Assembly (NCBI GenBank): GCA_964587625.1
Contig: CAZPLU010000002.1
Coordinates: 45,816-109,815, forward strand
Length of the DNA stretch: 64,000 nt
Source: an uncultured Eubacteriales bacterium
Lineage (GTDB): Bacteria; Bacillota; Clostridia; Oscillospirales; JAKOTC01
Direction: 5' to 3'
Under the pieces are notes generated by a model, which made no database searches, was not told where the DNA came from, and worked only from the letters and a program-made list of their open reading frames with translations. Below, piece after piece: positions 22,151 through 41,434 of this stretch. Each line of letters opens with the position of its first letter. Position 1 is the first letter of the stretch. The translations under genes were made by a program, and so were the position numbers.

Positions 22151-23044
22151 ATGAAAATCGACCGACTCATCGGCATACTGGCCGTTTTGCAACAAAACCG
22201 AAAAGTGACCGCGCCCTACCTCGCCGAAAAGTTCGAGGTCTCGCGGCGCACCATCAACCGCGACGTCGAGGATATCTGCCGCGCGGGGATCCCGGTTGTC
22301 ACCGCACAGGGGCAAAACGGCGGCATCTCTCTGATGGACGGCTTTTGCCTCGACACGACCGTGTTCACCGAGGAGGAATTGCAATCGATCTTCATCGGCT
22401 TAAAGACGCTCGACAGCGTGTCGGATAGTCCGAAATCGGGGCTGCTGGCGCAAAAGCTCAACGCGCCGCCCGCCGATTTGATGCGAATTGACCTCTCGTC
22501 TTTTTACAAAGAAAGCTTGTCGGCCAAAATCGAGCTGTTAAAAACCGCGATTGCACAGCGCCGCTATGTCTCGTTTCATTATTACTACACCAAGGGCGAA
22601 GAGGACAAGCGGATCGAGCCGTACATGATCGCCTACCAGTGGGCGGACTGGTATGTGTTCGGCTGGTGTACCGGGCGGAAGGATTTTCGGCTGTACAAGC
22701 TCAACCGGCTTTGGGAACTGCGCCTATGCGACGAGACATTTGCCCCGCGCGAGATCCCCGAGGAAAAAAAACGGTTCGGAACCAATTTCACCGACGACTA
22801 TTTTATCACCGCGATTTTCGACCCGTCCCTGAAATACCGGCTGGTCGAGGACCGGGGGCCGGGCTCTTTTACCGTCCTGCCGGACGGGCGGCTGAAAATG
22901 CGGTGGGGCTTCACCGACCCCGACGCCGCCGTTTTGTGGTTTTTGGGCTTCGGGGACAAGGTCGAAATCACCGACCCTCCCGAGATACGGGACAAGCTCA
23001 AATCGACCGCACGAAAAGTTTTTAAAAAGTATTCCGAATCATGA
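22151..23044 (+). CDS. HTH-WYL transcriptional regulator (YafY/PafBC-like architecture), copy 1
   Basis: MKIDRLIGILAVLQQNRKVTAPYLAEKFEVSRRTINRDVEDICRAGIPV (wHTH), then a WYL-type core ...RIEPYMIAYQWADWYVFGWCTGRKDFRLYKLNRL. Confidence 0.85.
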   Translation: MKIDRLIGILAVLQQNRKVTAPYLAEKFEVSRRTINRDVEDICRAGIPVVTAQGQNGGISLMDGFCLDTTVFTEEELQSIFIGLKTLDSVSDSPKSGLLAQKLNAPPADLMRIDLSSFYKESLSAKIELLKTAIAQRRYVSFHYYYTKGEEDKRIEPYMIAYQWADWYVFGWCTGRKDFRLYKLNRLWELRLCDETFAPREIPEEKKRFGTNFTDDYFITAIFDPSLKYRLVEDRGPGSFTVLPDGRLKMRWGFTDPDAAVLWFLGFGDKVEITDPPEIRDKLKSTARKVFKKYSES

Positions 23045-23051
23045 CATACTC

Positions 23052-23075
23052 CTGTCGTGTTCGATGGGTTATCCT
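23052..23075 (+). promoter_or_regulatory. TTGTCRKGT-N9-TAnnnT element, site A
   Basis: CTGTCGTGT-tcgatgggt-TATCCT. It starts 7 nt after the WYL-1 stop and lies 28 nt before ATG 23104. Confidence 0.55.
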
Positions 23076-23103
23076 ATAACAAATCGAATAGGGGGTATTT
23101 AAA

Positions 23104-23397
23104 ATGAACCAAGATAAAATCGATTCGCGGTGCGGGCTGCGTTGTTCCGATTGTACATATAAACAATCGCATGGCTGCGGCGGCTGTATCGAAACCAAAG
23201 GGAACCCGTTTCACGGAAAATGTCCCGTGGCCGCCTGTTGCCGGGACAGGGGCTTCGGCCACTGCGGGCAATGCCCCGACATCCCCTGCGAACTGCTGAC
23301 GCAATATTCCTGCGACCCCGAACACGGGGACACGCCCGCCGGCGCGCGCATCGAGCGGTGCAGGCGCTGGGCGCGAAACGAACCGATCAAAGTATAG
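23104..23397 (+). CDS. DUF3795-type cysteine-rich protein
   Basis: 97 aa with CGLRCSDC...GCGGC...CPVAACC...CGQCPDIPC. This small Cys-rich family is often found beside YafY-type regulators. Confidence 0.7.
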   Translation: MNQDKIDSRCGLRCSDCTYKQSHGCGGCIETKGNPFHGKCPVAACCRDRGFGHCGQCPDIPCELLTQYSCDPEHGDTPAGARIERCRRWARNEPIKV

Positions 23398-23475
23398 CGC
23401 GCCGCGGCGCGGGCATTTGGGTTGTAATGCGGAATTCTATGCCCCGCCGCTCAAATCGAAGGAAGGATTTTATTT

Positions 23476-23847
23476 ATGAAGTTGTGTTTTTTCATTCTCA
23501 ATGTGAACGATATTGAAATGATGAAGGCGTGGTACCGGGATGCCGCCGGTCTTAAATTGGTTTCCGAGTCCGCGGGTTATAAGGAATTTTTCACCGAAGA
23601 CGGGTTTTCGTTCAATCTCTGCCAAAAAAATCCGGCAGGGGCTTCACCGGCAAAACCGATCAACGAAACGATGAATATCGGCTTCGACCTCCCGACCTTC
23701 CGCGAGCTTGACGCCGCGTACGAGCGCCTGGTCAACGCCGGGGCGACGCCCGTGACCCCGCCGGCCACCGCCCCGTGGGGACACCGGATCGCCTATCTGG
23801 CCGACCCCGAGGGGAACATCCTCGCGCTGAATGCGATGAGGGAATAA
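23476..23847 (+). CDS. VOC (glyoxalase/bleomycin-resistance/dioxygenase) family protein
   Basis: 123 aa ending ...PWGHRIAYLADPEGNILAL, the typical VOC C-terminal motif. Confidence 0.8.
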   Translation: MKLCFFILNVNDIEMMKAWYRDAAGLKLVSESAGYKEFFTEDGFSFNLCQKNPAGASPAKPINETMNIGFDLPTFRELDAAYERLVNAGATPVTPPATAPWGHRIAYLADPEGNILALNAMRE

Positions 23848-23903: not shown

Positions 23904-24812
23904 ATGGCAGGATATCATATCAAAATTGACGAGCTATGCAGAAGGTGCGGCATCGGCGGGCTCATAACAGCGCCCGTTCCGATTTCCGGCGGTCTGCTGC
24001 ATCAAATGTACGATGTGAGCACAACGGCCGGGAGGTTCGTCGTCAAAGTGTTAAATCCCGAAATCATGGCGAGAAGCGGCGCTTTCGGCAGTTACGCCGT
24101 CTCCGAAAAAATTGCCCGCAAGCTTTCCGGCAGCATCCCTGTGAGCTGTGCAAAACGTTGTGGAGAAAATGATATACAGGAACTGGAAGGGCAATATTAC
24201 TTGATTTATGACTTTATAAACGGAAAGTCGCTGCGGCAACGCGAAATTACGCCGCGGCACGCGCAAAAAGTCGGAGCTGTCGTCGCAAAAATCCATACGA
24301 CCGACTTTTCCGAACTGAATCTTATAAATGTTCGTCCGACCAACCCCCGGGTTTTCGATTGGCTTTCGCTCGCGCGAACAGGTGAGAGCCGCGATTTGAT
24401 ATGGCATCCGCTAATAACGGCAAACCTTGAAAAGCTGTCTTTTTTAACGGACCGCATGAACGAATCCCGCGCGGCTTTGTCTTCGAACGAAACCATTTGC
24501 CACGGTGACCTTGATTCGAAAAACGTCTTATGGCAAAACAATATCCCCACAATTATCGATTGGGAATCGGCATGGTTTTATAATCCTTGCCATGATTTTC
24601 TCGATACAGCGCTTTACTGGTCGAAAAACGAGAATGAGTCCATTGATTATATGAGATTTTCCGCTTTTATCGACGGTTACAGGAGTATCAAAATCATCCA
24701 GAATACTGACTGGAAAACGGTTTTGTACAGCGGATATTCCGCAAAACTCGGATGGCTTTACTATAACTTAAAACGTTCTGCCGGTGTCGATTGTTATGAT
24801 GAAGCAGAGTAA
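23904..24812 (+). CDS. Phosphotransferase (APH-like kinase) family protein, possibly truncated by an in-frame TAA
   Basis: ICHGDLDSKNVLW and IIDWES kinase motifs. GAAGGA RBS precedes ATG 23904. After TAA 24810-24812 the same frame stays open for 34 more codons. Confidence 0.7.
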   Translation: MAGYHIKIDELCRRCGIGGLITAPVPISGGLLHQMYDVSTTAGRFVVKVLNPEIMARSGAFGSYAVSEKIARKLSGSIPVSCAKRCGENDIQELEGQYYLIYDFINGKSLRQREITPRHAQKVGAVVAKIHTTDFSELNLINVRPTNPRVFDWLSLARTGESRDLIWHPLITANLEKLSFLTDRMNESRAALSSNETICHGDLDSKNVLWQNNIPTIIDWESAWFYNPCHDFLDTALYWSKNENESIDYMRFSAFIDGYRSIKIIQNTDWKTVLYSGYSAKLGWLYYNLKRSAGVDCYDEAE

Positions 24813-24929: not shown

Positions 24930-25322
24930 ATGTTAATACCCCACCTTCACTTTAACGGTACTTGCAAACAAGCCGTCACCTTATATGAAGCCGCGTTCGG
25001 CGCAAAGGCCGAGAGCGTGATTTACAGCCATCAATACGACCCGTCTCAGCCCGTTAGCGACCGCGTCGCCCACGCCGTGATGAAAATCCACGGGCAGACG
25101 GTCTTTTTGAACGACCGCTTCGGCAACAAAGACCGAACCACCGACTGCGCCGTCCATCTGATTGTGATGTTCGAGAGCAAGGCCGCGTTATTATCTTGTT
25201 ACGAGCTTCTGAAAGAGGACAGCATCACGGTTGACCCGATGCAGGAATTGGCCTACAGCCTGCTCTGTGTGCAGTTCATCGATCGGTTCGGCGTGCTGTG
25301 GGGCTTTATGGTTGAGCAATGA
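24930..25322 (+). CDS. PhnB-like VOC superfamily protein
   Basis: LIPHLHFNGTCKQAVTLYEAAFGA... and C-terminal DRFGVLWGF are typical of the PhnB/3-demethylubiquinone-methyltransferase-like domain. Confidence 0.7.
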   Translation: MLIPHLHFNGTCKQAVTLYEAAFGAKAESVIYSHQYDPSQPVSDRVAHAVMKIHGQTVFLNDRFGNKDRTTDCAVHLIVMFESKAALLSCYELLKEDSITVDPMQELAYSLLCVQFIDRFGVLWGFMVEQ

Positions 25323-25380
25323 TCAAGCAAAACTTCTGTAAGTAATAATTTATTTTACTGTATACAAACACGTCATACTA

Positions 25381-25404
25381 TTGTCGTGTTCGTTGTGGTA
25401 ATAT
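25381..25404 (+). promoter_or_regulatory. TTGTCRKGT-N9-TAnnnT element, site B
   Basis: TTGTCGTGT-tcgttgtgg-TAATAT, 27 nt before ATG 25432. Confidence 0.55.
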
Positions 25405-25431: not shown

Positions 25432-25782
25432 ATGATTACGAAATTCCGCGGCATAAACATCTCTACAAAAAATCCAAAACGACTTGTTCTTTTTTATAAA
25501 GAGATATTGGGGCTTAAAATATTGGAAGACGATCCGAATGATGACGGCGTGGCGTTCGGCAATGGGGAAAATGAACCCGTCTTTTGGATTTGGGACGAAA
25601 ACAAGTGGGGGAAATCGACAACCGGAACGGTCACGCTGGTTTTTGACTGCGACGATCCCCAAAAAACATATGAGGAATTAAAACAAAAAGGCGTTGCGCT
25701 TGACCCTCCGTCCGTCGCGGATTGGGGCGGGACGGAACTTATTGTGAAAGACCCCGACGGCAACACGATCTTAATTTTATAA
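25432..25782 (+). CDS. VOC/glyoxalase family protein
   Basis: 116 aa. FYKEILGLK..., ...WGGTELIVKDPDGNTILI. Confidence 0.8.
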   Translation: MITKFRGINISTKNPKRLVLFYKEILGLKILEDDPNDDGVAFGNGENEPVFWIWDENKWGKSTTGTVTLVFDCDDPQKTYEELKQKGVALDPPSVADWGGTELIVKDPDGNTILIL

Positions 25783-25971: not shown

Positions 25972-26337
25972 ATGAAAAGATCGATGATGCAGGTCTATGT
26001 GAAAAACAGCGCGCAGGCAGTCCCGTTTTATCAAAACACATTCGGCGCGAAAGTAATTTGCTGCCATTATAACGCCGACAAAACCGTCGCCCACGCCGAG
26101 TTGGACGTTTTCGGGCAAATCCTTGCGATTTGCGAATCCGGAGAAAAAGAGACGGTCACGGGCAACGCCATGCAGTTTTGCCTGCATTTCGGCGCAGGAA
26201 ACGAGGAACTGGTGCGAAAAATCATCGGCAATCTCAGCCAGGATGGAAAAATTGTTTTCTCCGATCCGGTTGACTGGAGTCCGTTAGCGGCGGGGATTGT
26301 GGACAAATTCGGCGTGAATTGGTGCGTTTTTGTCTGA
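25972..26337 (+). CDS. PhnB-like VOC superfamily protein
   Basis: MQVYVKNSAQAVPFYQNTFGAK... and C-terminal DKFGVNWCV. Paralogous in pattern to the gene at 24930. Confidence 0.65.
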   Translation: MKRSMMQVYVKNSAQAVPFYQNTFGAKVICCHYNADKTVAHAELDVFGQILAICESGEKETVTGNAMQFCLHFGAGNEELVRKIIGNLSQDGKIVFSDPVDWSPLAAGIVDKFGVNWCVFV

Positions 26338-26446
26338 TATAGATGATAAGGGAAAAACGGTATCATCACGGTTGAACCCGCCCGCGAAAAGTCGGGAAGC
26401 TTTCTTCCGCCTGCGCTATAATTTTTTCGAAAAGGGGGCTTCAACC

Positions 26447-27298
26447 GTGGAAACACCGGCAATTCTCCAACAACTCAACGGGGCGATGGAATACCTCGAA
26501 GCGCGCCTCGGCGATGAGATCGATTTAAATGATTTGGCGCGCGTCGCCTGCGTCGCGCCGGACAGCTTCCTGCGCTTTTTCAGCTACATGACCGGGATGT
26601 CGCTGAGGGAGTATATCCGACGCAGGAGATTGACCCGCGCGGCGTATGAGCTGCGAGCCACGAACGCAAAAGTGATCGACGTCGCCGTTAGGTACGGCTA
26701 CGACAGCGCCGACGCGTTTTCAAGGGCGTTTATCCGGCAGCACGGGATCACGCCGACGCAGGCCAGAAACCCGAGTCGGCCGCTGAAAGCGTTTCCGCCC
26801 GCCTCCTTTCACATTGTGATGAACGGAGCGAAAGAAATGGAATTCAAACTCATTCAGGCAGGCGAAATCAAACTGCGCGGACTCTCGAAACAATTCAGCG
26901 GAGCAGCCGCCGACCGTTTCGAACAGGAGCACATCATGTGGGCAGACCACCACGACGATGTGCAAAACAAGGTCAGCACCGATGTCCCCGGCACGTGGTA
27001 CGGCGTCTGGGACGCGGGAAAGTACGCAATCGCCCGGGCGGAACAAGACGTCAACAGTAAAGACCTTGACGAGATCACAATTCCCGCGGGGACATACGCC
27101 GTGTTCAACACCGGTCCGGGCGGCTTTGCGGGAGACGAACTGCCCAAACTGCGCGAACAGGTCTTCGGCGCATGGCTGTCCGATTCCGGCTATGTTCAAA
27201 CAGCCGACCGCGAAGTCGAGGTTTATCACCTGTTTTCGAAAACCGAAAAATCCAAGCGGTATTATGAACTTTGGATTCCGGTGAAAAAGAATCAATAA
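26447..27298 (+). CDS. AraC-family regulator with a C-terminal GyrI-like effector-binding domain, copy 1
   Basis: HTH region LREYIRRRRLTRAAYEL...GYDSADAFSRAFIRQHGITPTQAR, then a GyrI-like half ending VEVYHL...YELWIPV. GTG 26447 lies 8 nt after AAGGGGG. Confidence 0.85.
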   Translation: METPAILQQLNGAMEYLEARLGDEIDLNDLARVACVAPDSFLRFFSYMTGMSLREYIRRRRLTRAAYELRATNAKVIDVAVRYGYDSADAFSRAFIRQHGITPTQARNPSRPLKAFPPASFHIVMNGAKEMEFKLIQAGEIKLRGLSKQFSGAAADRFEQEHIMWADHHDDVQNKVSTDVPGTWYGVWDAGKYAIARAEQDVNSKDLDEITIPAGTYAVFNTGPGGFAGDELPKLREQVFGAWLSDSGYVQTADREVEVYHLFSKTEKSKRYYELWIPVKKNQ

Positions 27299-27306
27299 TT
27301 GTGGGT

Positions 27307-27338
27307 CTCCCGCCATGCCGATATCGGCATGGCGGGAG
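27307..27338 (+). terminator. Perfect hairpin after AraC-1 (terminator candidate)
   Basis: ctcccgccatgccgatatcggcatggcgggag, followed by an A/T-rich stretch. Confidence 0.55.
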
Positions 27339-27362
27339 ATATTATATCTATATTCACGTTTT

Positions 27363-27401
27363 AAACCTGACATAGAGTTGTCAGGTTTGTTGTTTTATGA
27401 T
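27363..27401 (+). promoter_or_regulatory. TTGTCRKGT-N9-TAnnnT element, site C, embedded in a 10-bp perfect inverted repeat
   Basis: AAACCTGACA-tagagt-TGTCAGGTTT (27363-27388). TTGTCAGGT-ttgttgttt-TATGAT (27378-27401). Confidence 0.55.
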
Positions 27402-27487: not shown

Positions 27488-28345
27488 GTGATCAAGCTGG
27501 AATATCATGAACATATCGGCGCCGCGCTCGACTATATCGAGGACAACCTGTGCGGGGAGCTGACGCTCGCGCGCATCGCCTGCGCGGCGGGCTATTCGGA
27601 ATACCACTTTCTGCGCATCTTCCGCGAAGCCACCGGGCTGACCCCCGCCGACTACATCCGCAAGCGGCGCCTGTCCGAAATCGTCCGGCGCATGCAGCGC
27701 CTGCGCATGATGAATGAGGACCGCCCCGCCTCGGAGATCGCCTTCGAGTTCGGCTTCAATTCCAAGGAAAATTTTTTGCGCGCGTTCAAGGCCGAGCACC
27801 ACATCCTTCCGACCGAATTCCGAAAAGCCGGAAACAGCTTGAAACTGTATGACCGGATCCGGTTCGACCCGCCTCCGATTCAGGCGGAGGGGCGGGTTTT
27901 AAAACTCGACGCCTTTGAATTGATCGTCTATCCGAGCGACGAGGATTATGCGCCCAACTTTTGGAACAAGTACAACGCGAAAAAATGGTCCGAGAAACTC
28001 TCCGGGGGTAAAATCGCCGAGGACTTCGGCGTCTGCAAATGGAACGAAACCGCCCAAAAACTCGATTATTACATCGGAATCCGAAGGAGCGACGTGCGCG
28101 GCGACCTCTCCGGGACGGTCATGCTTCCGATCCCCGGCGGGCTTTACGCCGTCTTCGACACGCCACCGTCGACGCCCTTCGACTTCGTCAACGCCATCCA
28201 CCGCACCTGGCGTTACATCGGCCGTGTCTGGCTGCCGCAAAACGGGTACCGGCGCACCGGTGGCTACGAGCTAGAGAGCTATGTCGAGCAGAGCCGCGCG
28301 TTTTCGGAGCGCATCTATATCCCAGTGGAAAAAGAGAGCCAATAA
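27488..28345 (+). CDS. AraC-family regulator with a C-terminal GyrI-like effector-binding domain, copy 2
   Basis: LTLARIACAAGYSEYHFLRIFREATGLTPADYIRKRRL...FNSKENFLRAFKAEHHILPTEFR, then a GyrI-like half ending ELESYV...RIYIPV. Confidence 0.85.
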   Translation: MIKLEYHEHIGAALDYIEDNLCGELTLARIACAAGYSEYHFLRIFREATGLTPADYIRKRRLSEIVRRMQRLRMMNEDRPASEIAFEFGFNSKENFLRAFKAEHHILPTEFRKAGNSLKLYDRIRFDPPPIQAEGRVLKLDAFELIVYPSDEDYAPNFWNKYNAKKWSEKLSGGKIAEDFGVCKWNETAQKLDYYIGIRRSDVRGDLSGTVMLPIPGGLYAVFDTPPSTPFDFVNAIHRTWRYIGRVWLPQNGYRRTGGYELESYVEQSRAFSERIYIPVEKESQ

Positions 28346-29349: not shown

Positions 29350-29356
29350 TAAACTG

Positions 29357-29380
29357 TTGTCAGGTCTGGCGTGGTAATAT
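29357..29380 (+). promoter_or_regulatory. TTGTCRKGT-N9-TAnnnT element, site D
   Basis: TTGTCAGGT-ctggcgtgg-TAATAT. It starts 7 nt after the WYL-2 stop and lies 36 nt before ATG 29417. Confidence 0.55.
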
Positions 29381-30172: not shown

Positions 30173-30216
30173 CGCCCGTATTTCAATGGTTTTGGATAGT
30201 TGTACATTGTGAACCG

Positions 30217-33965: not shown

Positions 33966-33975
33966 AAGTAGTTTT

Positions 33976-34551
33976 ATGAAACATACCGTAACAACCGAAT
34001 TTTTTGCGGCAGGGGAATTTCTTGTCCTAAAAGGAATCGTAAAACTGTACGATTCGGAGGATTCATCTATCCCTGCGAATGACGAAGAAACATGGGATAT
34101 AATCAGACGGTGGTTGAACGACGGCTCTGTTGACCGTTTAAAAAAAGCGGCGGGTTCCGACGCCGTGTATATATTATTTTGCAACACCTGTGTGCGTAAC
34201 GACGCCGAAAAATGTTACGACTGCTCGTGCGACATAGCCTGCGAAAACTTTGGCGGCGCGAATGCTGCGGACGGATATGAAATTGTCCGGCTGCTGCCGT
34301 GTGAATACGCTGTGTTCGACTGTGATTTCAACGGCGAAATTACAATGCCGAAAGCGCACGAGAAACCGGACGCTATGTTTTGGGGCGAATGGCTGAAAAA
34401 GAATCCGTATGTTTCCGCGATTGACGATCCCGCGAACTGGTTAGGCAACGGATATGCTTCGATTGAGCTTTACACGCCTTTCGACCCGGACGCGAATAAA
34501 TTTAACGCGAAGATATGGTATCCGATTGTCAGAAAGGAAGAAAATCCATGA
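33976..34551 (+). CDS. GyrI-like/effector-binding-domain-like protein (tentative)
   Basis: 191 aa starting MKHTVTTEFFAAGEFLVLKG and ending ...IELYTPFD...AKIWYPI. Its own RBS (GGAGAGGAAG) lies inside the remnant's 3' end. Confidence 0.5.
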   Translation: MKHTVTTEFFAAGEFLVLKGIVKLYDSEDSSIPANDEETWDIIRRWLNDGSVDRLKKAAGSDAVYILFCNTCVRNDAEKCYDCSCDIACENFGGANAADGYEIVRLLPCEYAVFDCDFNGEITMPKAHEKPDAMFWGEWLKKNPYVSAIDDPANWLGNGYASIELYTPFDPDANKFNAKIWYPIVRKEENP

Positions 34552-35168
34552 GCGGCAAAACCGAAATGCAGAAAGTCAGCCAAGAAACCATGCGTTTCAT
34601 GCGGGGGAAATATGCGCTGGATGAGTTCGGCAACGGAAAAGACCAGCTTGCTTTTATCGACGGCGACGAAACCGTGTTGACCATTGCCATACGAAACGGT
34701 TATTATGATTTTGCAGTTGGGCAAGAGGTCATACGGGTTGCCGATCTCGACGCGCTCGAAAAAGCCAAAGAGATGATCACGGCCGCAAAAAACCCCAACC
34801 GCAAGCCGTTCCCGAAAACCCATATTCATTTTTCCAATTGCGGGCATCGCTGCGATCTTTGCGTTCATTACAAAGGCGAGACCCCGGTCGGCGCCGAGGA
34901 GCGTGATTTTGTTTTAGAGTGTCACAAAGCAGTATACGGTGATTTTGTTTGGGAGATGAATTGCGGCGGCTGTCATTTTCCCGATTGTACCGTCGAAAGC
35001 GTGCATTGTAAAAAAGGGAAAGGCATTGATCGGTGTTGGGCCTGCGAAAATTATTCAACATGCCTGAAAACGGCGGGCTGGCCGCCTGAAATCCATACGC
35101 GCGCCATTACCGCAGATCAAGTGACACGGGCGATACTGCCTTATGTGAAAGGGCAATACGGAAATTAA
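34548..35168 (+). CDS. Hypothetical protein with a C-terminal DUF3795-like Cys-rich domain
   Basis: ATG overlaps the previous stop (ATGA). C-terminal half CGHRCDLCVHY...CGGCHFPDC...CWACENYSTC. Confidence 0.5.
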   Translation: MSGKTEMQKVSQETMRFMRGKYALDEFGNGKDQLAFIDGDETVLTIAIRNGYYDFAVGQEVIRVADLDALEKAKEMITAAKNPNRKPFPKTHIHFSNCGHRCDLCVHYKGETPVGAEERDFVLECHKAVYGDFVWEMNCGGCHFPDCTVESVHCKKGKGIDRCWACENYSTCLKTAGWPPEIHTRAITADQVTRAILPYVKGQYGN

Positions 35169-35193
35169 CGATAAAAACAGGAGGCGCAAAAAG

Positions 35194-35817
35194 ATGAACG
35201 TCAAATCCTATCTAACCGAAATCGCCGTACAAAACGGCCTTGCCGCAGAATCCATGCAATTCCCCGACTGCGAGATCGACCCCGCGAAAATCAAGGTCAT
35301 GATGATCAACGAAGTGGTGCCGAAAAACCCGGACGACTGGTTTTACAGCGAAGCCCGCGACCCTGAAAACAGGAGAAACGCGCTCGGCTTGTTCGAGGGC
35401 GCGGGCGTACCCGTCAAAAGCATGCGCGACATCCTCGATTTGGGCATCTATATCACCGCCGCTTTAAAAACCCCGAAAGTAGGTTCTGCAGCCGATCCCG
35501 AAGCCATCCGGGCGCAGCTCCCGCTGCTGGAAGCGGAACTCGCGCTGTTCCCGAACCTCAGGGTCATCATGCTCATGGGCGACGTGGCGATAAAAATGGT
35601 CAACATGATTGCGAAGGCGCAAACGAAAAAGAACGCCTGCCAATCGGGCGCGGCGGGCAGACGCCGGCATTGGGCTAACGAAAAATTTTATTGGAACGGC
35701 ATCCGCGTTTTTCCGTCCTATATCATGACCGGCAAGAACCTTCTGATCGAGCCGTTCAAACGCGACACGATTACGGAGGACATCCGCAAAATGATGGAGG
35801 TGATCAAGAATGTCTGA
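35194..35817 (+). CDS. Uracil-DNA glycosylase superfamily protein with divergent motifs (tentative)
   Basis: 207 aa. KVMMINEVVP stands where UDG motif A (GxxPG / GINPG) lies, and VFPSYIMTG where motif B (HPS...) lies. Length and spacing are consistent with the UDG fold. Confidence 0.5.
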   Translation: MNVKSYLTEIAVQNGLAAESMQFPDCEIDPAKIKVMMINEVVPKNPDDWFYSEARDPENRRNALGLFEGAGVPVKSMRDILDLGIYITAALKTPKVGSAADPEAIRAQLPLLEAELALFPNLRVIMLMGDVAIKMVNMIAKAQTKKNACQSGAAGRRRHWANEKFYWNGIRVFPSYIMTGKNLLIEPFKRDTITEDIRKMMEVIKNV

Positions 35818-37093
35818 ACAAAATAAGCTTACCGCCGAAAAAGACGTGAAGAACGCCGGCCTGAGCGAAGACCTACAAAAAGCGCACCTCGGATTTTTGC
35901 GTTTTTTAAGAGATACCGAGTTCTCGGTCGAAGCGGAAGACGACGGGAACGGATGGAAAATCATCGATTTGAACGCGTGCGTCGGTCATATAAATTTTGC
36001 CAACGCGGGCATTTGGATTGACGCCTGCGATTTTGGCGGCGTCGGTTGGGCGGACGAGGCCTTGAAAGAAACCACATGGGCTCACGTGAGGGTGTGCGAG
36101 CATTTCAGTTCGAACGGAACGAAGTGCGGCTGCGGCAGGCAACCGGGTTTTGACGGAAACCTTTTCGGAAAGGAATATAAAAACCTCTGTTTTGCCCGTT
36201 TGGAGTTTATAAATCCCGACATTGAAACATTGGAAAGTATTAAAAAATTGATGTTATCGTATCGGCAAAACAAAAAAAATATTGATATGACCCCATATGA
36301 ACTGATGGTCAAGACCAACCACTATTTGATCAAGGGCGGCGAGCTGACCGGCGGGCAAAAAGAAAACATCGTCCGGCGGCTGCTGGCCGCGAAAAGCACG
36401 ACCGAACAAGCCGCTCGTTTTTATACCGGGGTGCGTTTCCCGGGAAATACCGACACGGGCGGACGCAAAATGTACCCGGAATTTTTCATCCCGCCTTACA
36501 ACGGCGGCGAAAAATACAGGACCGTTCTCGGACAAACGCCCAAGACCCATATCTTGTCGGCGAATCTTTATGAGCTTGAGATTTTACGGCTTTTACACTT
36601 GTTCACGCCCGACGATCCGGAGATCAAAAATATGACCGGAAAAACGCTTGCGCGGCTCAAAACCACCTGCTTCGGTTCTCAGGACGACGGCGTCGGCGAG
36701 TGCTTCGACGCCAACCTGGTCGTGCTCCGTTTTCTGGCTGCCGCCGCGCCGCGCGAGACGGACTGGATCAACGGCCGGATCGAAAATTATAACCGCCATG
36801 CGAACGATAAAAAGCGCCCGTGGTTCAGCCGGTGGTATTTTTGGCTCTACCTGTCGGAGCTGCCGTTTGAACTGGCTAAGCCGGAGGTCGATAAATACAA
36901 GCGCGAGATGGCACATTGGCTCGATTACAAGAGCTGCGTGATGAACAGCGAATCCGACCGGATCATCCACCCGACGCTGCTGTGCATCCTGCGCAACAAT
37001 CTGGCAAGGTACCCCGAATACGCGCACATCAAAGACCGACAGCCGTTTGTGAGCGAACGTGACGGGCGATTGCATTTTGATACGGAGAAGTGA
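35810..37093 (+). CDS. Hypothetical 427-aa protein (N-terminal shared Cys module plus unknown C-terminal domain)
   Basis: Its start overlaps the UDG-like stop by 8 nt (ATGTCTGA). Contains VRVCEHFSSNGTKCGCGRQPGFDGNLFGKEYKNLCFARLEFINP. No recognisable family. Confidence 0.5.
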   Translation: MSEQNKLTAEKDVKNAGLSEDLQKAHLGFLRFLRDTEFSVEAEDDGNGWKIIDLNACVGHINFANAGIWIDACDFGGVGWADEALKETTWAHVRVCEHFSSNGTKCGCGRQPGFDGNLFGKEYKNLCFARLEFINPDIETLESIKKLMLSYRQNKKNIDMTPYELMVKTNHYLIKGGELTGGQKENIVRRLLAAKSTTEQAARFYTGVRFPGNTDTGGRKMYPEFFIPPYNGGEKYRTVLGQTPKTHILSANLYELEILRLLHLFTPDDPEIKNMTGKTLARLKTTCFGSQDDGVGECFDANLVVLRFLAAAAPRETDWINGRIENYNRHANDKKRPWFSRWYFWLYLSELPFELAKPEVDKYKREMAHWLDYKSCVMNSESDRIIHPTLLCILRNNLARYPEYAHIKDRQPFVSERDGRLHFDTEK

Positions 37094-37096
37094 TGA

Positions 37097-37414
37097 ATGA
37101 AAACCGATTTTAGAAAAATCAATCCCTGCGGCGGGTGCTGTGATGATTGCGGTTTTAGGAAAAGCGGCGAGTGCAGGGGCTGCCGTGATTCAAAAGGCAA
37201 ATGCGTAAAATTATGGTCAAACGGCTGCCGGATTTATGAGTGCTGCGAAAAGCATAACGTCTATTTTTGCGGTGATTGCGACGAATTCCCCTGCGAATGG
37301 ATTGTCAATAAAATCGGCGAATGGGACAAGCAGGGAATCGAAAAATTAAAAATGCTCCGGGAAGATAAAAAACGTTCAGCCGGTTTAAATACGATAAAGA
37401 GGGCGTTTAAATGA
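37097..37414 (+). CDS. DUF3795-type cysteine-rich protein
   Basis: 105 aa. CGGCCDDCGF...CRGC...CRIYECC...CGDCDEFPC. Confidence 0.7.
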   Translation: MKTDFRKINPCGGCCDDCGFRKSGECRGCRDSKGKCVKLWSNGCRIYECCEKHNVYFCGDCDEFPCEWIVNKIGEWDKQGIEKLKMLREDKKRSAGLNTIKRAFK

Positions 37415-38136
37415 ACAAAACCATTTTGATCACGGGCAGCGCTTCGGGCATCGGTAAAGCCACGGCCAAATTATTCGCAAAGAATCAATACAACGTCTTT
37501 CTGATCGACATTGACGAACAAAATAACCAAAACGTCGCCGACGAGATCAACAACGGCGGAAACGCTGTTGCTTTTTCCGCGGATGTGCGGATTGAGGACG
37601 AGGTCTCGAATGCGGTGAAACGATGCATTGAAGTGTTCGGCGCGCTCGACTGCGCATTCAACAACGCCGGGATCGCCGTCAGCAAAAACACGGTCGACTG
37701 CACGGAAGACATTTGGGACCGCGTGATCGACACGAATTTAAAAGGGTACTGGCTGTGCATGAGGCATGAATTAAAGCAGATGCATACGCAGGGGCACGGA
37801 AACATTGTGAACACCGCGTCCATTAGCGGCCTGATCGCCCGCGCGGGGGACATGCCGTACAACGTCAGCAAATTCGGGATCGTGGGCCTGACGAAGACGG
37901 CGGCCCTTGAAAACGCCGGTAAGAACATCCGGGTGAACTGCATATGCCCCGGCGCGGTGCAGACGCCCTGGGTGAAAAAAGTGACCAAAGGGCTGAACGA
38001 ATTGCAGCCGATGGGGAGGATCGCCCAGCCGGAGGAAATCGCCGAAGCCGTGTTGTGGCTCTGCTCCGACCGCTCTGCTTTTATGACCGGCCACGCCCTC
38101 GTACTGGACGGCGGCCGGATCGCGGGCGAGTGGTGA
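37411..38136 (+). CDS. SDR-family oxidoreductase
   Basis: TGSASGIGKATA, NNAG and YNVSK motifs. Its ATG overlaps the previous stop. Confidence 0.9.
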   Translation: MNKTILITGSASGIGKATAKLFAKNQYNVFLIDIDEQNNQNVADEINNGGNAVAFSADVRIEDEVSNAVKRCIEVFGALDCAFNNAGIAVSKNTVDCTEDIWDRVIDTNLKGYWLCMRHELKQMHTQGHGNIVNTASISGLIARAGDMPYNVSKFGIVGLTKTAALENAGKNIRVNCICPGAVQTPWVKKVTKGLNELQPMGRIAQPEEIAEAVLWLCSDRSAFMTGHALVLDGGRIAGEW

Positions 38137-38156
38137 AAGTGAAAACGGAGGGTAAA

Positions 38157-39143
38157 ATGAACGAAAAAGTAATCGACTGGCTGCTTGAAGAAAAAGAACC
38201 GTCCATCCGTTACCGGACATTGACCGAATTGCTGGAATATCCGAGTGACTGCGAAGAAGTAATGTCGGCCAAGGAAAAAGCGTTCGATTGCGAAAACGTC
38301 CGGCGCATTTTTTCAAGGACGGACGAAAAGGGGATTTTCCCCCATAAGGCGGAGTATTACGGAAATTGGACGACGTTTTGCTATCTGACCGCGCTTGCCG
38401 AATTGGGGATCACGAAAGAAGATAAACGTGTTTGGCCGATCGTCGACTGGATTTTAACCCCCGGAGAGGATAAACTCGAACGCTTTGTGCAAAAAGAATT
38501 CGCCCCCGCTTATCTGCTTGAAGAGGACAATTTGGGCGGCTGCCGTCAAATCCGCTTTTTAAGCACGCTCGTCCGGCTCGGTTATTTAGATGACCCGCGC
38601 GTGAAACGGATGATTGACGTGTTCGCGGAAAAGGGCAGATTCGACGGCGGGTATTTGTGCAAATGGAAGAAAAGCAGGCACAAGGGACAGGAACCGAAGA
38701 GTTGTTATATCGCTGCCGTACCCGCTTTGTATTTATATTCCGTCTTGCCCGCTTGTTATAGACAGGGAAAAAATTACGACGCTCTGATCGATTATTTTAT
38801 AAGCAGAGAGATTATTTACAGCAAAACAGAACCCGGGAAAATCATATGCGACACGCGGCTCGGCTTTTTCAGCACCGGTTATACGCAGATCCTCACCGTC
38901 GCAAACGCAATGGGCAAATTGGGACTGGGTGATACCCCGCAGATGAGAAGCGTGTGGGAGATCATCCAAAATAAAACGGTTGACGGGAAATACATTCTCG
39001 AAACCGAAGAAACCAAAAGGACTATTTTGATGGACAGGGTCGGAAAACCAAACAAATGGATCACTTTTCAAGTCCTCCTCGCCCAAAAAGAAGCGGGGCG
39101 CTTGTCAAACGGAAATCCGCAAAAAAGAGTCATGAACGAGTGA
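38157..39143 (+). CDS. Hypothetical protein (possibly an alpha/alpha-toroid, prenyltransferase-like repeat protein)
   Basis: 328-aa ORF with a GGAGGG RBS. MNEKVIDWLLEEKEPSIRYRTLTELL.... The family call is a guess. Confidence 0.35.
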   Translation: MNEKVIDWLLEEKEPSIRYRTLTELLEYPSDCEEVMSAKEKAFDCENVRRIFSRTDEKGIFPHKAEYYGNWTTFCYLTALAELGITKEDKRVWPIVDWILTPGEDKLERFVQKEFAPAYLLEEDNLGGCRQIRFLSTLVRLGYLDDPRVKRMIDVFAEKGRFDGGYLCKWKKSRHKGQEPKSCYIAAVPALYLYSVLPACYRQGKNYDALIDYFISREIIYSKTEPGKIICDTRLGFFSTGYTQILTVANAMGKLGLGDTPQMRSVWEIIQNKTVDGKYILETEETKRTILMDRVGKPNKWITFQVLLAQKEAGRLSNGNPQKRVMNE

Positions 39144-39171
39144 TACAACTATTTGAAAGGATGAAGCCATC

Positions 39172-39996
39172 ATGATCGAACTGCCCGAGGCCCATGTGCT
39201 TGCAAACCAGCTCAACCAGGCGTTTTTGGGAAAAACCATTGTCAGCGCCGCGGCCAACACCTCACCGCACGGTTTCGCGTGGTATTCCGGCGACCCCGCG
39301 CTGTACAACCAAAAGCTCGCCGGAAGAAAAATCACGGGCACCGCTGCTTATGGCGGGCGTCCCGAAATGCGCGCCGACGGGATGATCGTCTCGTTTTTCG
39401 ACGGCGTGCGGGCGCGCCGCCTGTCCGCGCCGGAAGAACACCCCGACAAACACCAGCTTTTGCTCGAGTTTGACGACGGCTCCGCCCTCTGCTGCACCGT
39501 ACAGATGTACGGCGGCATGACGGCTTTTCCCGACGAACCCAACGACGATTTTTACTACAACGTCGGCAGGAAAAAACCGTCCCCTTTTTCGGAGGCGTTC
39601 GACAGGTCTTATTTTGACGGGCTGTTCGAGGGGGTTAAAAAGTCGCTCAGCGTCAAAGGGCTGCTTGCGACCGAGCAGCGTATCCCCGGCCTCGGCAACG
39701 GCGTCCTACACGATATTTTATTCAACGCCCGCATCCACCCCAAGCGCAAGGCGGAAACGCTGTCCGACAGCGAGCGGGATTCGCTGCACCGCGCCGTGGT
39801 ATCCACGCTGCGTGAAATGCGGGACGGCGGCGGGCGCGACACCGAACGCGATTTGTTCGGCAATCCGGGCGGCTACGGCACCATCCTTTCAAGCAAGACC
39901 GTCGCCTACCCCTGCCGCGTCTGCGGAAACGGGCTGAAGCGCGAGGCCTATATGGGCGGCAATATTTATTACTGTCCGACATGTCAAAAGGTATAA
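39172..39996 (+). CDS. Fpg/Nei-family DNA glycosylase-like protein with Ile in place of the catalytic Pro2, paralog 1
   Basis: MIELPEAHVL... (canonical MPELPEVE). H2TH ATEQRIPGLGNGVLHDILFNARIHPK. C-terminal zinc finger CRVC-N16-CPTC. Confidence 0.8.
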   Translation: MIELPEAHVLANQLNQAFLGKTIVSAAANTSPHGFAWYSGDPALYNQKLAGRKITGTAAYGGRPEMRADGMIVSFFDGVRARRLSAPEEHPDKHQLLLEFDDGSALCCTVQMYGGMTAFPDEPNDDFYYNVGRKKPSPFSEAFDRSYFDGLFEGVKKSLSVKGLLATEQRIPGLGNGVLHDILFNARIHPKRKAETLSDSERDSLHRAVVSTLREMRDGGGRDTERDLFGNPGGYGTILSSKTVAYPCRVCGNGLKREAYMGGNIYYCPTCQKV

Positions 39997-40056
39997 GGAT
40001 GTGTATAAATTCCCATTGCATGTTTTTCAACAACTATTTGAAAGGATGAAGTCATT

Positions 40057-40896
40057 ATGATCGAACTGCCCGAGGCCTATGTGCTCGCCGAGCAAATCAA
40101 CCGCACGCTCGCCGGAAAGACGATTCAAAACGCGACGGCCAACGCCTCGCCGCACAAATTCGCCTGGTACAGCGGCGACCCGGCCGTGTACCAGCAAAAA
40201 CTGGCCGGTAAGACGGTTACATCGGCAAATCCCGGAACCGGTTACACCTGCGGCGGCAACACCGAGATCGTCTGCGGCGACATGCTGCTTGTGATCTCGA
40301 CGCCGATCAAGTACCACGCGCCCGGCGAAAAGCTGCCGGCCAAGCACCAGCTCTGGCTGGAATTCGAGGACTTCTCGTCGATGACCTGCACCGTGCAGAT
40401 GTGGGGCGCGATGTTTTGCTATCCGCTCGGCGAAAACGGCTTGCCGAAGGGATATAAAGTCAACAAAACCCCGACGCCGCTCGAGAACGGATTCGATCGG
40501 ACATACTTTGAAGCGCTGCTCTCCGGCGCGCCGAAAAATTTGTCCGCCAAGGCCTTTTTGGCCACCGAGCAGCGTATCCCGGGCTTCGGCAACGGCGTTT
40601 TACAAGACATTTTATTCAACGCGAAAATCCACCCCAAGACCAAACTTGAAAAGCTGATCGACGCGGAAGTCGAAAATTTATATCAATCGGTCAAAAAGAC
40701 GCTGTTCGCCATGACCGCGCAGGGCGGGCGCGACACCGAAAAGGACCTGTTCGGCTGCCCGGGCGGCTACAAGACCATTTTGTCGGCGAATACCCTCAAT
40801 GACCCCTGCCCCGTCTGCGGCGGCAAAATCGTGCGCGAGGCGTATTTGGGCGGCAATATCTATTACTGCCCGACCTGCCAGCCGTGGAAAAAATAA
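40057..40896 (+). CDS. Fpg/Nei-family DNA glycosylase-like protein with Ile in place of the catalytic Pro2, paralog 2
   Basis: MIELPEAYVL.... H2TH ATEQRIPGFGNGVLQDILFNAKIHPK. Zinc finger CPVC-N16-CPTC. Confidence 0.8.
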   Translation: MIELPEAYVLAEQINRTLAGKTIQNATANASPHKFAWYSGDPAVYQQKLAGKTVTSANPGTGYTCGGNTEIVCGDMLLVISTPIKYHAPGEKLPAKHQLWLEFEDFSSMTCTVQMWGAMFCYPLGENGLPKGYKVNKTPTPLENGFDRTYFEALLSGAPKNLSAKAFLATEQRIPGFGNGVLQDILFNAKIHPKTKLEKLIDAEVENLYQSVKKTLFAMTAQGGRDTEKDLFGCPGGYKTILSANTLNDPCPVCGGKIVREAYLGGNIYYCPTCQPWKK

Positions 40897-40918
40897 CAGC
40901 GAAAGGAATTGTTTTAAT

Positions 40919-41434
40919 ATGATCGAACAATTGATTTCGGAGGAGCGTTTTGACTTTATCGCCCCGGAAAACAAACAATTCATCGTCGCGTTCACAAACG
41001 CGCTCGCGGACATTGGATACACCTTCAGAGGCGAAATCGAAAGGGGCTATTGCTGGGGCAGGTATATGCTGGTTTTTACAAAAGCCAACGTCAAATCTAA
41101 AAAGGTGGCCGCGCGCATCTATATCCGCGAAAAAGGGCTCGCGCTTCGGCTGTTTTTCAACGATGTCACCAAGCACGCGCCATATATTTCGCAGGCGCCC
41201 GACTTTATCAAAGAGGTTTTCATCGGATCGTACGCCACCTGCAAGCACTGCAAGGGAGAGCGGTGCAAATTCCAAAAGACCTATGACATCGGGGGCGTCC
41301 GTTATGAAAAATGCAACGGGCTGACTTTTGAATTCCAACGTCCCGGAATGAGCCGCCTGGACGATTATCTGGGGCTGTTTAAAGAATTTTACCCGGTTTC
41401 CCGTCGCTGCGTGATGAAGATCACAAGGCCCTGA
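40919..41434 (+). CDS. Hypothetical protein carrying the shared Cys module
   Basis: 171 aa with a GAAAGGAA RBS. ATCKHCKGERCKFQKTYDIGGVRYEKCNGLTFEFQRP. Confidence 0.45.
   Translation: MIEQLISEERFDFIAPENKQFIVAFTNALADIGYTFRGEIERGYCWGRYMLVFTKANVKSKKVAARIYIREKGLALRLFFNDVTKHAPYISQAPDFIKEVFIGSYATCKHCKGERCKFQKTYDIGGVRYEKCNGLTFEFQRPGMSRLDDYLGLFKEFYPVSRRCVMKITRP

Follow-up and report, generated by a model that had tools for sequence, protein, structure and literature searches.

Transcriptional regulators that contain a WYL domain are common; to our knowledge, few of them (PafBC, DriD, SiwR, BrxR, and CapW) have known operators and targets. Here, we analyze a 64,000-nucleotide stretch of DNA from an uncultured Eubacteriales bacterium (contig CAZPLU010000002.1, positions 45,816 to 109,815; hereafter, the window), in which an array of genes between positions 22151 and 41434 contains two such regulators, designated WYL1 and WYL2. 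PafBC and SiwR provide the most informative comparisons. Promoters controlled by PafBC conform to the pattern tGTCgg(N10)tA(N3)T, which includes an element at −26, and lack a −35 element (PMC8635444, PMC6789036). The function of PafBC requires two arginines and a phenylalanine in the loop between β4 and β5 as well as the WYL triplet’s tyrosine. SiwR, which controls the dinS operon of Mycobacterium smegmatis, is a homodimeric protein of HTH-WYL-WCX architecture that recognizes a 19-bp imperfect palindrome between the −35 and −10 elements (PMC10693628). It depends on the −26 region and, by binding single-stranded DNA, turns on neighboring small genes of detoxification-like character when cells are exposed to zeocin, H2O2, or mitomycin C (PMC10693628). 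By analogy with these systems, we consider it somewhat probable (roughly 55%) that the array in the window is regulated by its WYL proteins and switched on by DNA-damaging chemicals, with products that would detoxify the chemicals and process the resulting lesions.

Open reading frame (ORF) listing, translation, and Pfam searches revealed that the array consists of 26 ORFs, all on the + strand, plus one decayed Fpg-like gene. It encodes two HTH-WYL-WCX regulators, two proteins that join an AraC-type HTH to a GyrI-like domain, three stand-alone GyrI-like proteins, three VOC and two PhnB-like proteins, three DUF3795 proteins, two Fpg/Nei-like proteins, and one UDG-like protein. The remaining genes specify one APH kinase, one short-chain dehydrogenase/reductase (SDR), one class-I methyltransferase, one DUF5131 protein, and four proteins without a Pfam match. 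This inventory reproduces that of an earlier note made from the sequence, including the recurrence of families and the Fpg remnant, which is a frameshifted and internally deleted pseudogene. The five VOC/PhnB-like proteins counted in the earlier note require one adjustment: the three VOC proteins exceed the Pfam cut-off, and the two PhnB-like proteins fall just below it.

The array contains four copies of a motif designated A (GTTGTCAGGTYTGG) and two copies of a related motif designated B (TGTCGTGTTCGWTG). All copies are intergenic and on the + strand, and 0 of 100 shuffled sequences matched these counts. Both motifs represent the 3′ part of a palindrome of the form TGACA-N6-TGTC[A/G]. Five full sites of this form are each followed, after exactly 12 nucleotides (nt), by a −10 element of the form TAnnnT (5/5). 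Site B1 (23042–23075; TGACATACTCCTGTCG) begins at 23042 and its −10 element, TATCCT, at 23070; site B2 (25371–25404; CGTCATACTATTGTCG), a palindrome with two mismatches, begins at 25371 and is followed by TAATAT at 25399. A motif scan located site A1 (27368–27401; TGACATAGAGTTGTCA), with a palindrome start at 27368 and TATGAT at 27396, and site A2 (29347–29380; TGATAAACTGTTGTCA), with a palindrome start at 29347 and TAATAT at 29375. Site A4 (31789–31822) is the perfect palindrome TGACAGTCAGTTGTCA, which begins at 31789 and is followed by TAAAAT at 31817. A sixth site (30216–30229; GTTGTCAGGTTTGG) is a degenerate 3′ half of operator A that has a poor −10 element at the wrong spacing. The TGA stop codons of WYL1 (23042–23044) and WYL2 (29347–29349) form the first three bases of the operator of the next unit, an overlap that is also present in many related loci. 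The 5′ half-site of the palindrome lies 22–23 nt and the 3′ half-site 11–12 nt from the −10 element, as compared with 17 nt for a canonical −35 element. Neither half-site stands at canonical −35 spacing, and no properly spaced −35 element is present. Because it lies 11–12 nt from the −10 element, the 3′ half-site is positioned at about −26.

The palindrome is conserved beside WYL genes. In locus L003, each motif is kept directly after the stop codon of the orthologous WYL1 or WYL2 gene (the counterpart of B1 lies at 3893); motif-A sites are also found in L009 and L169, and all three loci contain sites orthologous to A4. The palindrome also follows WYL2 homologues of 40–54% identity in L013, L026, L028, L039, L066, and L088. 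We assembled 80 metagenome loci anchored on WYL2 homologues, 78 of which were scored for the palindrome. It occurs within 150 nt past the WYL stop codon in 49 of the 78 loci, 46 of which have a correctly spaced −10 element; the background rate is 0.08 per 160 nt. When redundancy was removed by clustering at 90% identity, 26 of 69 assessable clusters contained a perfect site and 39 a site, with a correctly spaced −10 element, that has at most one mismatch. The start of the −10 element peaks sharply 11–12 nt past the palindrome across all loci. The palindrome is found 5′ of the WYL gene in 29/78 metagenome loci, which suggests autoregulation. Annotated records of cultured organisms provide further examples: in Priestia megaterium, a perfect site lies after the gene for a ‘YafY family protein’ and before one of the NTF2 family, and another precedes a gene for a ‘GyrI-like domain-containing protein’ in Monoglobus pectinilyticus. 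On the P. megaterium plasmid NZ_CP085445.1 (L171), perfect TGACA-N6-TGTCA sites at 3890 and 4912 flank the ‘YafY family protein’ gene, one in a divergent promoter shared with an SDR gene and the other before the NTF2-family gene. The search of plasmids with WYL2 returned such operator-bearing annotated examples and nothing that shows the arrangement to be plasmid-specific.

WYL1 (22151–23044, +; 297 amino acids, counted from Met14 of an ORF that starts at 22112) and WYL2 (28429–29349, +; 306 amino acids) are 28% identical. Both match the Pfam families HTH_11, WYL, and WCX above cut-offs; WYL2 also matches HTH_PafC (34.6 bits; cut-off, 32). A profile of the WYL family matches PafBC (6sj9) at 2.6e-39 and PafC at 5e-27; the corresponding values for CapW, DriD, and BrxR are 6e-6, 5e-5, and 3.5e-4, respectively. 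The recognition helix contains a conserved R-x3-R-D motif, as in PafB (R44/R48). Among 10 family members, W172, Y173, and R185 are invariant, F187 is nearly so, and position 188 is occupied by R or K. The conserved R-x-F-R/K-x2-R motif of the β4/β5 loop aligns with R-x-F-R-L-x-R in PafB and PafC; WYL1 deviates at two ligand-loop positions, which are occupied by Y and K. Judged by these features, WYL1 and WYL2 are to be classed as regulators of the PafBC/SiwR type, with PafBC as the closest solved relative. The earlier note had likened them both to PafBC or DriD and to BrxR or CapW, and the profile favors the damage activator PafBC by far. The note’s description of the array as WYL-controlled gains similar support from the five operator-promoter sites of one type and from the palindromes kept beside WYL2 homologues across dozens of lineages. 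Further support comes from palindromes that lie, in distant species, upstream of genes for the Fpg-like family and from the recurrence of the array’s families as cargo.

The likeness to PafBC extends from the recognition-helix arginines and WYL-loop residues to the promoters, which in the window contain a GTC-containing element ~11–12 nt upstream of a canonical −10 element and no properly spaced −35 element. The two systems differ in several respects. PafBC is a heterodimer (one fused chain in some actinobacteria) that recognizes a non-palindromic site, whereas the two-fold palindrome of the window suggests a homodimer; the spacing in the window is one or two nucleotides longer. Moreover, the PafBC regulon comprises ~150 genes throughout the genome, including recA, whereas the window reveals local targets only. 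SiwR and the window have in common the architecture of the regulator, an operator that is palindromic and occupies the same place in the promoter, and adjacent small cargo genes. It differs in phylum, operator sequence, and cargo, which is DinB-like in the case of SiwR and GyrI-like, VOC, DUF3795, and Fpg-like in the window. SiwR controls one two-gene operon, whereas in the window 24 cargo genes are accompanied by two regulators and no fewer than five operators; the window is known from sequence alone.

BrxR and CapW, which belong to BREX and CBASS systems, respectively, share the HTH-WYL-WCX architecture and local control of neighboring genes. Their relation in sequence to the regulators in the window is weak (3.5e-4 and 6e-6 vs 2.6e-39 for PafBC), and no defence system was found nearby among the ten array proteins scanned. 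These comparisons bear on a reading in which WYL1 and WYL2 act as BrxR/CapW-type repressors of an anti-phage system in the array, composed, for example, of the DUF5131 protein and the methyltransferase or of glycosylases that act on modified phage DNA. WYL regulators often accompany defence systems, and modified bases of phages are conceivable targets of glycosylases. In addition, the DUF5131 protein matches the PADLOC candidates PDC-M41B and PDC-M30B, and the methyltransferase has a weak, partial match to mad2. However, a PADLOC scan of ten proteins of the array disclosed no known system or effector (nuclease, ATPase, TIR, or cyclase), and the WYL proteins matched generic models only. BrxR and CapW score ~30 orders of magnitude worse than PafBC in the WYL profile, a small binder of the GyrI-like kind dominates the cargo, and the DUF5131 and methyltransferase genes form a lineage-specific, low-GC insert outside the conserved core. 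The phage-defence context, which the earlier note had raised as an alternative, thus appears very improbable.

We next consider the genes that accompany the operator in other genomes. In 45 loci, the first gene past the operator encodes a GyrI-like protein 24 times, a Zn_ribbon_2 protein seven times, and a SnoaL protein twice; Fpg-like, GNAT, isochorismatase, and a few other proteins appear once each. The second and third genes (n = 56) include those for radical S-adenosylmethionine (SAM) proteins (8), GNAT proteins (3), Fpg-like, DUF3795, PhnB-like, and GyrI-like proteins (2 each), and a UDG and a methyltransferase (1 each). The radical SAM proteins are members of the PA0069/Rv2578c family; in Mycobacterium tuberculosis, Rv2578c is LexA-bound and RecA-dependent. 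In the metagenome loci L114, L120, L142, L149, and L153, the gene for this protein comes after the GyrI-like gene, often together with one for an unannotated protein of 210–260 amino acids. A DNA-damage theme is thus found in sister loci, where the LexA/RecA-linked radical SAM family is part of the cargo and a UvrD-like helicase lies behind an orthologous operator (L169).

A survey of 76 distant species anchored on the Fpg-like gene gave 21 loci with a co-oriented operator and −10 element no more than 5 kb upstream of it, seven of them within 300 nt; sites in these loci are co-oriented in 29 cases and opposite in five. Immediate neighbors of the Fpg-like gene in 75 species are diverse, with 184 Pfam families in 142 genes, among which GNAT (5), GyrI-like (4), and Zn_ribbon_2 (3) recur. 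These counts derive from Pfam searches of pooled neighbors; single-sequence tblastn of the array’s proteins, run on 80 loci anchored by Fpg, yielded few partners and is too insensitive for small divergent families. In an Oscillospiraceae metagenome-assembled genome (MAG; L013, 7053–10822), a WYL2 homologue is followed by the operator and by genes for VOC, DUF3795, unknown, DUF1706, and Fpg-like proteins. The DUF1706 gene, which adjoins the Fpg-like gene, belongs to the ClbS family, and ClbS is a colibactin-resistance protein. Across these genomes, the families of the window form a recurring guild attached to this WYL regulator rather than a fixed operon. The order WYL regulator, operator, and GyrI-like gene plus variable cargo defines a widespread Bacillota module; the version in the window is unusually large and grew through insertions and recombination. 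What was observed directly is the anatomy of the array, the conserved operator, and the spectrum of its cargo.

The two Fpg/Nei-like proteins, encoded at 39172–39996 (protein 1) and 40057–40896 (protein 2), are 55% identical; protein 2 has an ortholog of 82% identity in L169. They match the Pfam families H2TH, Fapy_DNA_glyco, and zf-FPG_IleRS and belong to a family with >7,600 matches; in a collection of one genome per species, 592 stretches were confirmed, from archaea as well as several bacterial phyla. Over its full length, the family aligns with Lactococcus lactis Fpg, its best solved match (2.8e-25). Thus, it shares with Fpg, Nei, and NEIL proteins the N-terminal domain, the H2TH domain, and the C-terminal zinc finger, together with Glu3 and the zinc-finger arginine; E3, R257, and four cysteines are invariant. 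The family differs at position 2, where Ile or Leu replaces the proline nucleophile. Protein 1 begins with MIELPE, and nearly all of the 120 relatives listed, as well as both copies in the window, follow the pattern M-[I/L]-E-[L/I]-P-E, not M-P-E-L-P-E, as judged by alignment. Residues that align with the RGK and RKF positions of Fpg are G-G-R and Q-M-Y, and scores fall far below the NCBIfam cut-offs (PRK01103, 83.4 vs 212 bits; TIGR00577, 79.2 vs 203.3; Nei, 47.4 vs 252). Because the proline nucleophile is missing, glycosylase activity is putative. NEIL3 uses Val2, and with Ile or Leu at position 2 the initiator methionine is normally retained; the chemistry of these proteins may therefore differ. 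We found nothing relevant on Fpg-like proteins that lack Pro2 in the literature searched.

GyrI-like domains occur in five proteins of the array: the two AraC-type regulators, designated (a) (26330–27298) and (b) (27488–28345), a stand-alone protein (31847–32293), a protein in which the domain is fused to a Zn_ribbon_2 tail (32343–33119), and a protein of 191 amino acids (33976–34551). The last of these begins at Met141 of a 331-residue ‘chimera’ ORF (33556–34551). Regulator (a) has an ortholog of 78% identity in L003 that is frameshifted; regulator (b), the stand-alone protein, and the Zn-ribbon fusion were identified by Pfam, all three as GyrI-like/Cass2 domains, and orthologs of the stand-alone protein are 72–81% identical. 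Escherichia coli SbmC/GyrI is an SOS-induced, LexA-controlled GyrI-like protein that is thought to protect against DNA-targeting toxins. The array resembles this case in placing stand-alone GyrI-like proteins under a putative DNA-damage-responsive regulator; the two differ in that SbmC is controlled by LexA and not by a WYL protein, and the profile of the five domains matches SbmC (1jyh) at E = 0.68. The same profile matches 3lur and SA2223 at about 2e-4. Cyclopropanoid hydrolases (YtkR7, C10R6, and lin2189) contain an acidic pair, E157 and E185, and an aromatic cage (PMC5684135). Only the general C-terminal glutamate of GyrI-like proteins is visible, in four of the five domains, and it is missing in one. 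The idea, put forward in the earlier note, that the GyrI-like proteins hydrolyze cyclopropane warheads is not supported; the profile finds binders of the SA2223/3lur type, not lin2189 or YtkR7.

The same note had drawn an analogy with dedicated glycosylases such as AlkD/YtkR2 and AlkZ. The self-resistance to yatakemycin and CC-1065 on which this concept was modeled does combine a GyrI-like protein that neutralizes the compound with a dedicated glycosylase (YtkR2) that removes the adduct. In the window, however, the glycosylase-like proteins have the Fpg fold, not that of AlkD or AlkZ, and lack Pro2, and no biosynthetic cluster is present. The divergent UDG-superfamily-like protein (35194–35817) has a single match in the PDB, the family-5 UDG 2d3y (4.7e-4 over 58 residues); its homologues (53–64% identity) adjoin Fpg-like genes in L009, L041, L049, L067, and L169.

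Together, these features suggest a mechanism. Two paralogous WYL regulators, probably homodimers, would sit on the palindromes of the five operator-promoter sites. If they act as PafBC, SiwR, and DriD do, damage would generate single-stranded DNA that is bound by the WYL domains, and the regulator in this state would recruit or adapt the housekeeping RNA polymerase to promoters that lack a −35 element. The induced GyrI-like, VOC, kinase, methyltransferase, and SDR proteins would sequester or modify planar, intercalating, or DNA-reactive xenobiotics; the Fpg-like and UDG-like proteins would process unusual base lesions. The AraC-GyrI regulators may add direct sensing of ligands.

Several points weigh against this proposal. 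Which protein occupies the operator, whether it activates or represses, what signal it answers, and which enzymatic activities follow are all inferred. Binding of the candidate operators by WYL1 and WYL2 is suggested by the position and conservation of these sites. Approximately 40% of WYL2 homologues are without a recognizable downstream site, and motif B, the candidate operator for WYL1, is known from the window and one related locus only. An operator that covers −35 to −24 could equally serve repression, as in the case of BrxR and CapW, and WYL domains elsewhere also bind RNA or unidentified ligands. The Fpg-like proteins lack Pro2, the Schiff-base nucleophile of Fpg/Nei; the UDG-like protein scores 23.9 bits over 80 residues, below the Pfam cut-off of 24.3; the GyrI-like profile matches no chain of lin2189 or YtkR7 up to E = 10; and the array contains neither an apurinic/apyrimidinic endonuclease nor a glycosylase of the AlkD/AlkZ type. 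Finally, much of the cargo elsewhere (GNAT, isochorismatase, SnoaL, and MFS proteins) is of a generic xenobiotic- or antibiotic-modifying kind that has no link to DNA.

This last point leads to a different reading, in which the WYL proteins, perhaps together with the two AraC-GyrI sensors, answer a signal other than damage. The cargo would then detoxify xenobiotics or antibiotics, and the Fpg-like and UDG-like proteins would have non-repair roles or be passengers. Consistent with such a general stress array, cargo elsewhere also includes SnoaL/NTF2 proteins, PNPOx proteins, and methyltransferases. Moreover, the GyrI-like domains resemble the multidrug binders SA2223 and 3lur, AraC-GyrI proteins are typical ligand-sensing factors of multidrug responses, ligands of WYL domains are diverse, and the Fpg-like family lacks the catalytic proline. 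On the other hand, the closest relative of the regulators is PafBC, a damage-response factor whose ligand-loop residues they retain. In the Fpg-like family, the H2TH domain and zinc finger persist along with Glu3 and the C-terminal arginine, and its genes are repeatedly found behind the operator; sister modules contain a UvrD-like helicase and the SOS-linked radical SAM family. We regard the xenobiotic reading as unlikely, yet as the strongest of the competitors to a damage-induced array.

The five operator-promoter sites and one terminator divide the array into what appear to be at least five units. WYL1 has its own sigma-70-like promoter (22080–22107; TTTAAA-16-TGnTATAAT), which lacks a WYL-type operator. 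Site B1 precedes the genes for DUF3795 Cys-rich protein (a) (23104–23397; orthologs of 79–80% identity in L003 and L169), VOC/glyoxalase-fold protein (a) (23476–23847; Pfam Glyoxalase, 52.6 bits; a 74% ortholog in L003), an APH-family phosphotransferase (23904–24812; Pfam APH, 85 bits; GC 0.47) that is missing from related loci, and PhnB-like (3-dmu-9_3-mt) VOC-fold protein (a) (24930–25322). The last of these has orthologs of 80–86% identity in L003, where the gene is frameshifted, and L169. Site B2 is followed by genes for the low-GC VOC/glyoxalase-fold protein (b) (25432–25782), PhnB-like protein (b) (25972–26337; a 71% ortholog in L169), and AraC-GyrI regulator (a). The three VOC proteins of the array score 33.7–52.6 bits (cut-off, 20.6) and the two PhnB-like proteins 23.3 and 19.5 bits (cut-off, 24). 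A strong terminator-like hairpin (27305–27340; 16-bp stem with 11 GC pairs) closes this unit and parts the two halves of the array.

The second half begins with site A1, which precedes the genes for AraC-GyrI regulator (b) and WYL2; the latter has orthologs of 83–90% identity in L003, L009, and L169. Site A2 heads the DUF5131 gene (29417–30172; Pfam, 132.8 bits), which has the lowest GC content of the array (0.40; GC at third codon positions, GC3, 0.35). Possibly, this unit extends to genes for a low-GC class-I SAM methyltransferase of the small-molecule type (30249–31007) and for unk194 (31165–31749), a protein of 194 amino acids and unassigned function that has no Pfam or NCBIfam match and has orthologs in L009 and L169. 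Site A4 heads a tightly packed run of 13 genes (31847–41434). These encode, in order, the stand-alone GyrI-like protein, the GyrI-Zn-ribbon fusion, VOC/glyoxalase-fold protein (c) (33107–33559), the 191-residue GyrI-like protein, the N-terminally extended DUF3795 protein (b) (34515–35168), the UDG-like protein, unk427 (35810–37093), DUF3795 protein (c) (37097–37414), the SDR (37411–38136), an α/α-toroid protein (38157–39143), Fpg-like proteins 1 and 2, and unk172 (40916–41434; 172 amino acids). Relatives of unk172 are encoded 3′ of an Fpg-like gene in L003, L014, and L169. The earlier note had viewed the array as one layered genotoxin-defence system. Control by WYL proteins is supported by the sequence; a single layered system is supported only in part, given that the set of genes is not fixed and the cargo is swappable, five or more promoters and one or more strong terminators lie within the array, the GyrI-like proteins are not of the hydrolase type, the Fpg-like proteins lack Pro2, and the inducing signal is conjectural.

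Two proteins of the A4 unit were modeled. The 328-residue protein encoded at 38157–39143 has distant homologues that match PF13243 and PF00432; its AlphaFold-type model (pLDDT 91.3), which has weak, non-specific matches to GH88 and terpene-cyclase folds, is predicted to form an α/α toroid. In unk427, which is 427 amino acids long, a unique N-terminal segment of 158 amino acids is fused to a conserved domain of 268 amino acids (36287–37093), a fusion seen in the window organism only. Elsewhere the 268-residue domain stands alone as a protein; its identity is 60–82% among many Clostridia and one Paenibacillus. AlphaFold predicts an all-α fold (pLDDT 89.7) for which Foldseek found no solved structural relative (best E = 0.19). 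The toroid and 268-residue proteins occur together beside an Fpg-like gene in L003, L012, L081, and L169, and the toroid only in L057. Structure prediction, proposed earlier as a check, thus yielded confident models for both proteins and a function for neither. By eye, a Cys-rich C-terminal pattern is shared by the unannotated proteins or segments encoded at 31165–31749, 35810–36283, and 40916–41434; these may form one further paralogue family, to which BLASTP gives no link.

The array is flanked by genes for a GH78 rhamnosidase and a GT10 fucosyltransferase. Both genes are on the minus strand, which makes the block discrete. Co-orientation alone is not exceptional because long same-strand runs occur elsewhere in the window (45.4–63.9 kb, all minus). 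As the earlier note had remarked, G+C content is mosaic: individual genes have GC values of 0.40–0.60 and GC3 values of 0.35–0.79, with low values concentrated in several window-specific inserts, above all the DUF5131/methyltransferase pair. Paralogue pairs in the array are all old (24–55% identity), and local tandem duplication as their source was rejected for this reason. An integron cassette array or attC cluster was also rejected: the flanks contain no integrase, and intergenic gaps (−37 to 60 nt between 32.3 and 41.4 kb) are too short for attC. The 64-kb window contains no tRNA genes, and no Rfam family was matched within the array. The sole match in the window is a T-box leader (RF00230, 118 bits) at 56583–56806 on the minus strand, upstream of the minus-strand ORF 55492–56520 and unrelated to the array.

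Exact copies of the window’s proteins were found only on one NCBI contig and a few Logan contigs, and the nearest relatives are MAGs labeled Oscillospiraceae or Eubacteriales. The backbone of the array is common to three related lineages (L003/L004, L009, and L169). In L003/L004 and L169, the array lies between the same GH78 and GT10/URO-D genes as in the window; L009 provides a partial third version on a 9.7-kb contig that ends short of the flanking genes. The order in L003/L004 is WYL1, flavin reductase, DUF3795, VOC, PhnB (frameshifted), AraC-GyrI (frameshifted), WYL2, GyrI-like, 268-residue protein, toroid paralogue, Fpg1, DUF6434-like, GNAT, and DUF6144. L169 lacks WYL1 and contains DUF3795, PhnB, other genes, PhnB, UvrD-like helicase, WYL2, unk194, GyrI-like, UDG-like (frameshifted), 268-residue protein, toroid, Fpg2, unk172, and DUF6144. 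Backbone genes are 72–88% identical in amino acid sequence to those of L003, L009, and L169, and the WYL1 ortholog occupies the same position in L003 (84% identity). Because the identity of the backbone resembles that of the flanking genes (65–88%), the backbone is taken to be inherited with the chromosome, and the block is best described as a chromosomal, vertically inherited locus. A recently acquired island was rejected on the same grounds, namely the presence of the backbone in related lineages, in two of them between the same flanking genes, at an identity like that of the flanks.

Onto this backbone, genes were added. The kinase, VOC (b), and AraC-GyrI (b); DUF5131 and methyltransferase; GyrI-Zn-ribbon, VOC (c), and DUF3795 (b); and DUF3795 (c) and SDR genes are specific to the window and represent insertions; the joint presence of both Fpg copies is window-specific as well. 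As to the variability that the earlier note had proposed to examine, the cargo has no fixed set and differs in each of the four closely related loci; the shared backbone is kept in the three related lineages. Sequence comparison disclosed a recombination scar at 33559–33957. It consists of a 58-nt copy (33559–33616; 90% identity) of the 5′ end of the DUF3795 (b) gene and a frameshifted, internally deleted Fpg-like pseudogene (33670–33957) that is 77–78% identical in DNA to Fpg1. Because these elements precede the GyrI-like gene that begins at 33976, the 331-residue ORF is read as the scar plus that gene. The 25 nt before the starts of Fpg1 (39146–39170) and Fpg2 (40031–40055) are almost identical, CAACTATTTGAAAGGATGAAG[C/T]CAT, which suggests that the second copy arrived by recombination through this shared leader. 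The DUF5131 and methyltransferase genes (29417–31007) form a low-GC insert (0.40–0.42) between a full operator and the degenerate half-operator; the DUF5131 protein has weak matches to ‘radical SAM mobile pair protein A’ and to two PADLOC candidate components. In L169 (4130–7415), the operator orthologous to window position 27368 is followed by a gene for a 722-residue UvrD-family helicase and then by WYL2. Promoter A1 and its L169 counterpart are nearly the same in sequence, and the first gene has been swapped (AraC-GyrI in the window, UvrD-family in L169).

Such exchanges could indicate that the array is no system at all. It might instead be a hotspot of recombination and insertion that stacks unrelated accessory genes in one direction, the motif being a promoter fragment spread by recombination. 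The different content of each of the four related loci, the mosaic G+C, the pseudogene and 58-nt duplication that mark past recombination, the degenerate half-operator next to a low-GC insert, and the 184 neighbor families of the Fpg-like gene in 75 species all fit such a hotspot. It is difficult to reconcile with the palindrome and its 11–12-nt spacing from the −10 element, which are kept beside WYL genes of only 40–55% identity in many lineages, including Bacilli. In addition, cargo families recur far above the frequency of ordinary neighbors (GyrI-like proteins account for 24/45 first cargo genes vs 4/142 Fpg neighbors). We consider a hotspot without function improbable.

A local, stress-induced regulon of a WYL factor is a known kind of system. 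The operator of this family, the placement of GyrI-like proteins first among the cargo, and the link to the Pro-less Fpg-like family were not found in the literature searched, in which no publication mentions both a WYL domain and GyrI. It is tempting to speculate that anaerobic and other Bacillota hold a widespread, undescribed, LexA-independent damage response that resembles that of PafBC. In this tentative scheme, which we think more doubtful than the damage-induced array itself, a homodimeric WYL activator would act through a ‘−26-type’ TGACA-N6-TGTCA operator to induce two signature effectors, a toxin binder of the GyrI-like kind and an Fpg-like enzyme that lacks Pro2 and uses non-canonical chemistry, perhaps directed at bulky, intercalated, or cross-linked adducts. 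The window would be its largest known assembly.

The locus yields a concrete, conserved operator for a large family of Bacillota WYL regulators as well as a defined cargo spectrum, in which GyrI-like proteins come first and are followed by Zn-ribbon, Fpg-like, DUF3795, PhnB-like, radical SAM, and UDG-like proteins. It thereby makes testable the roles of GyrI-like and DUF3795 proteins and of two structurally uncharacterized proteins, the existence of an SOS-independent damage response in Clostridia, and the action of a Pro-less Fpg fold. If the genotoxin reading is true, these modules would bear on the tolerance of anaerobic community members to DNA-reactive natural products and drugs.

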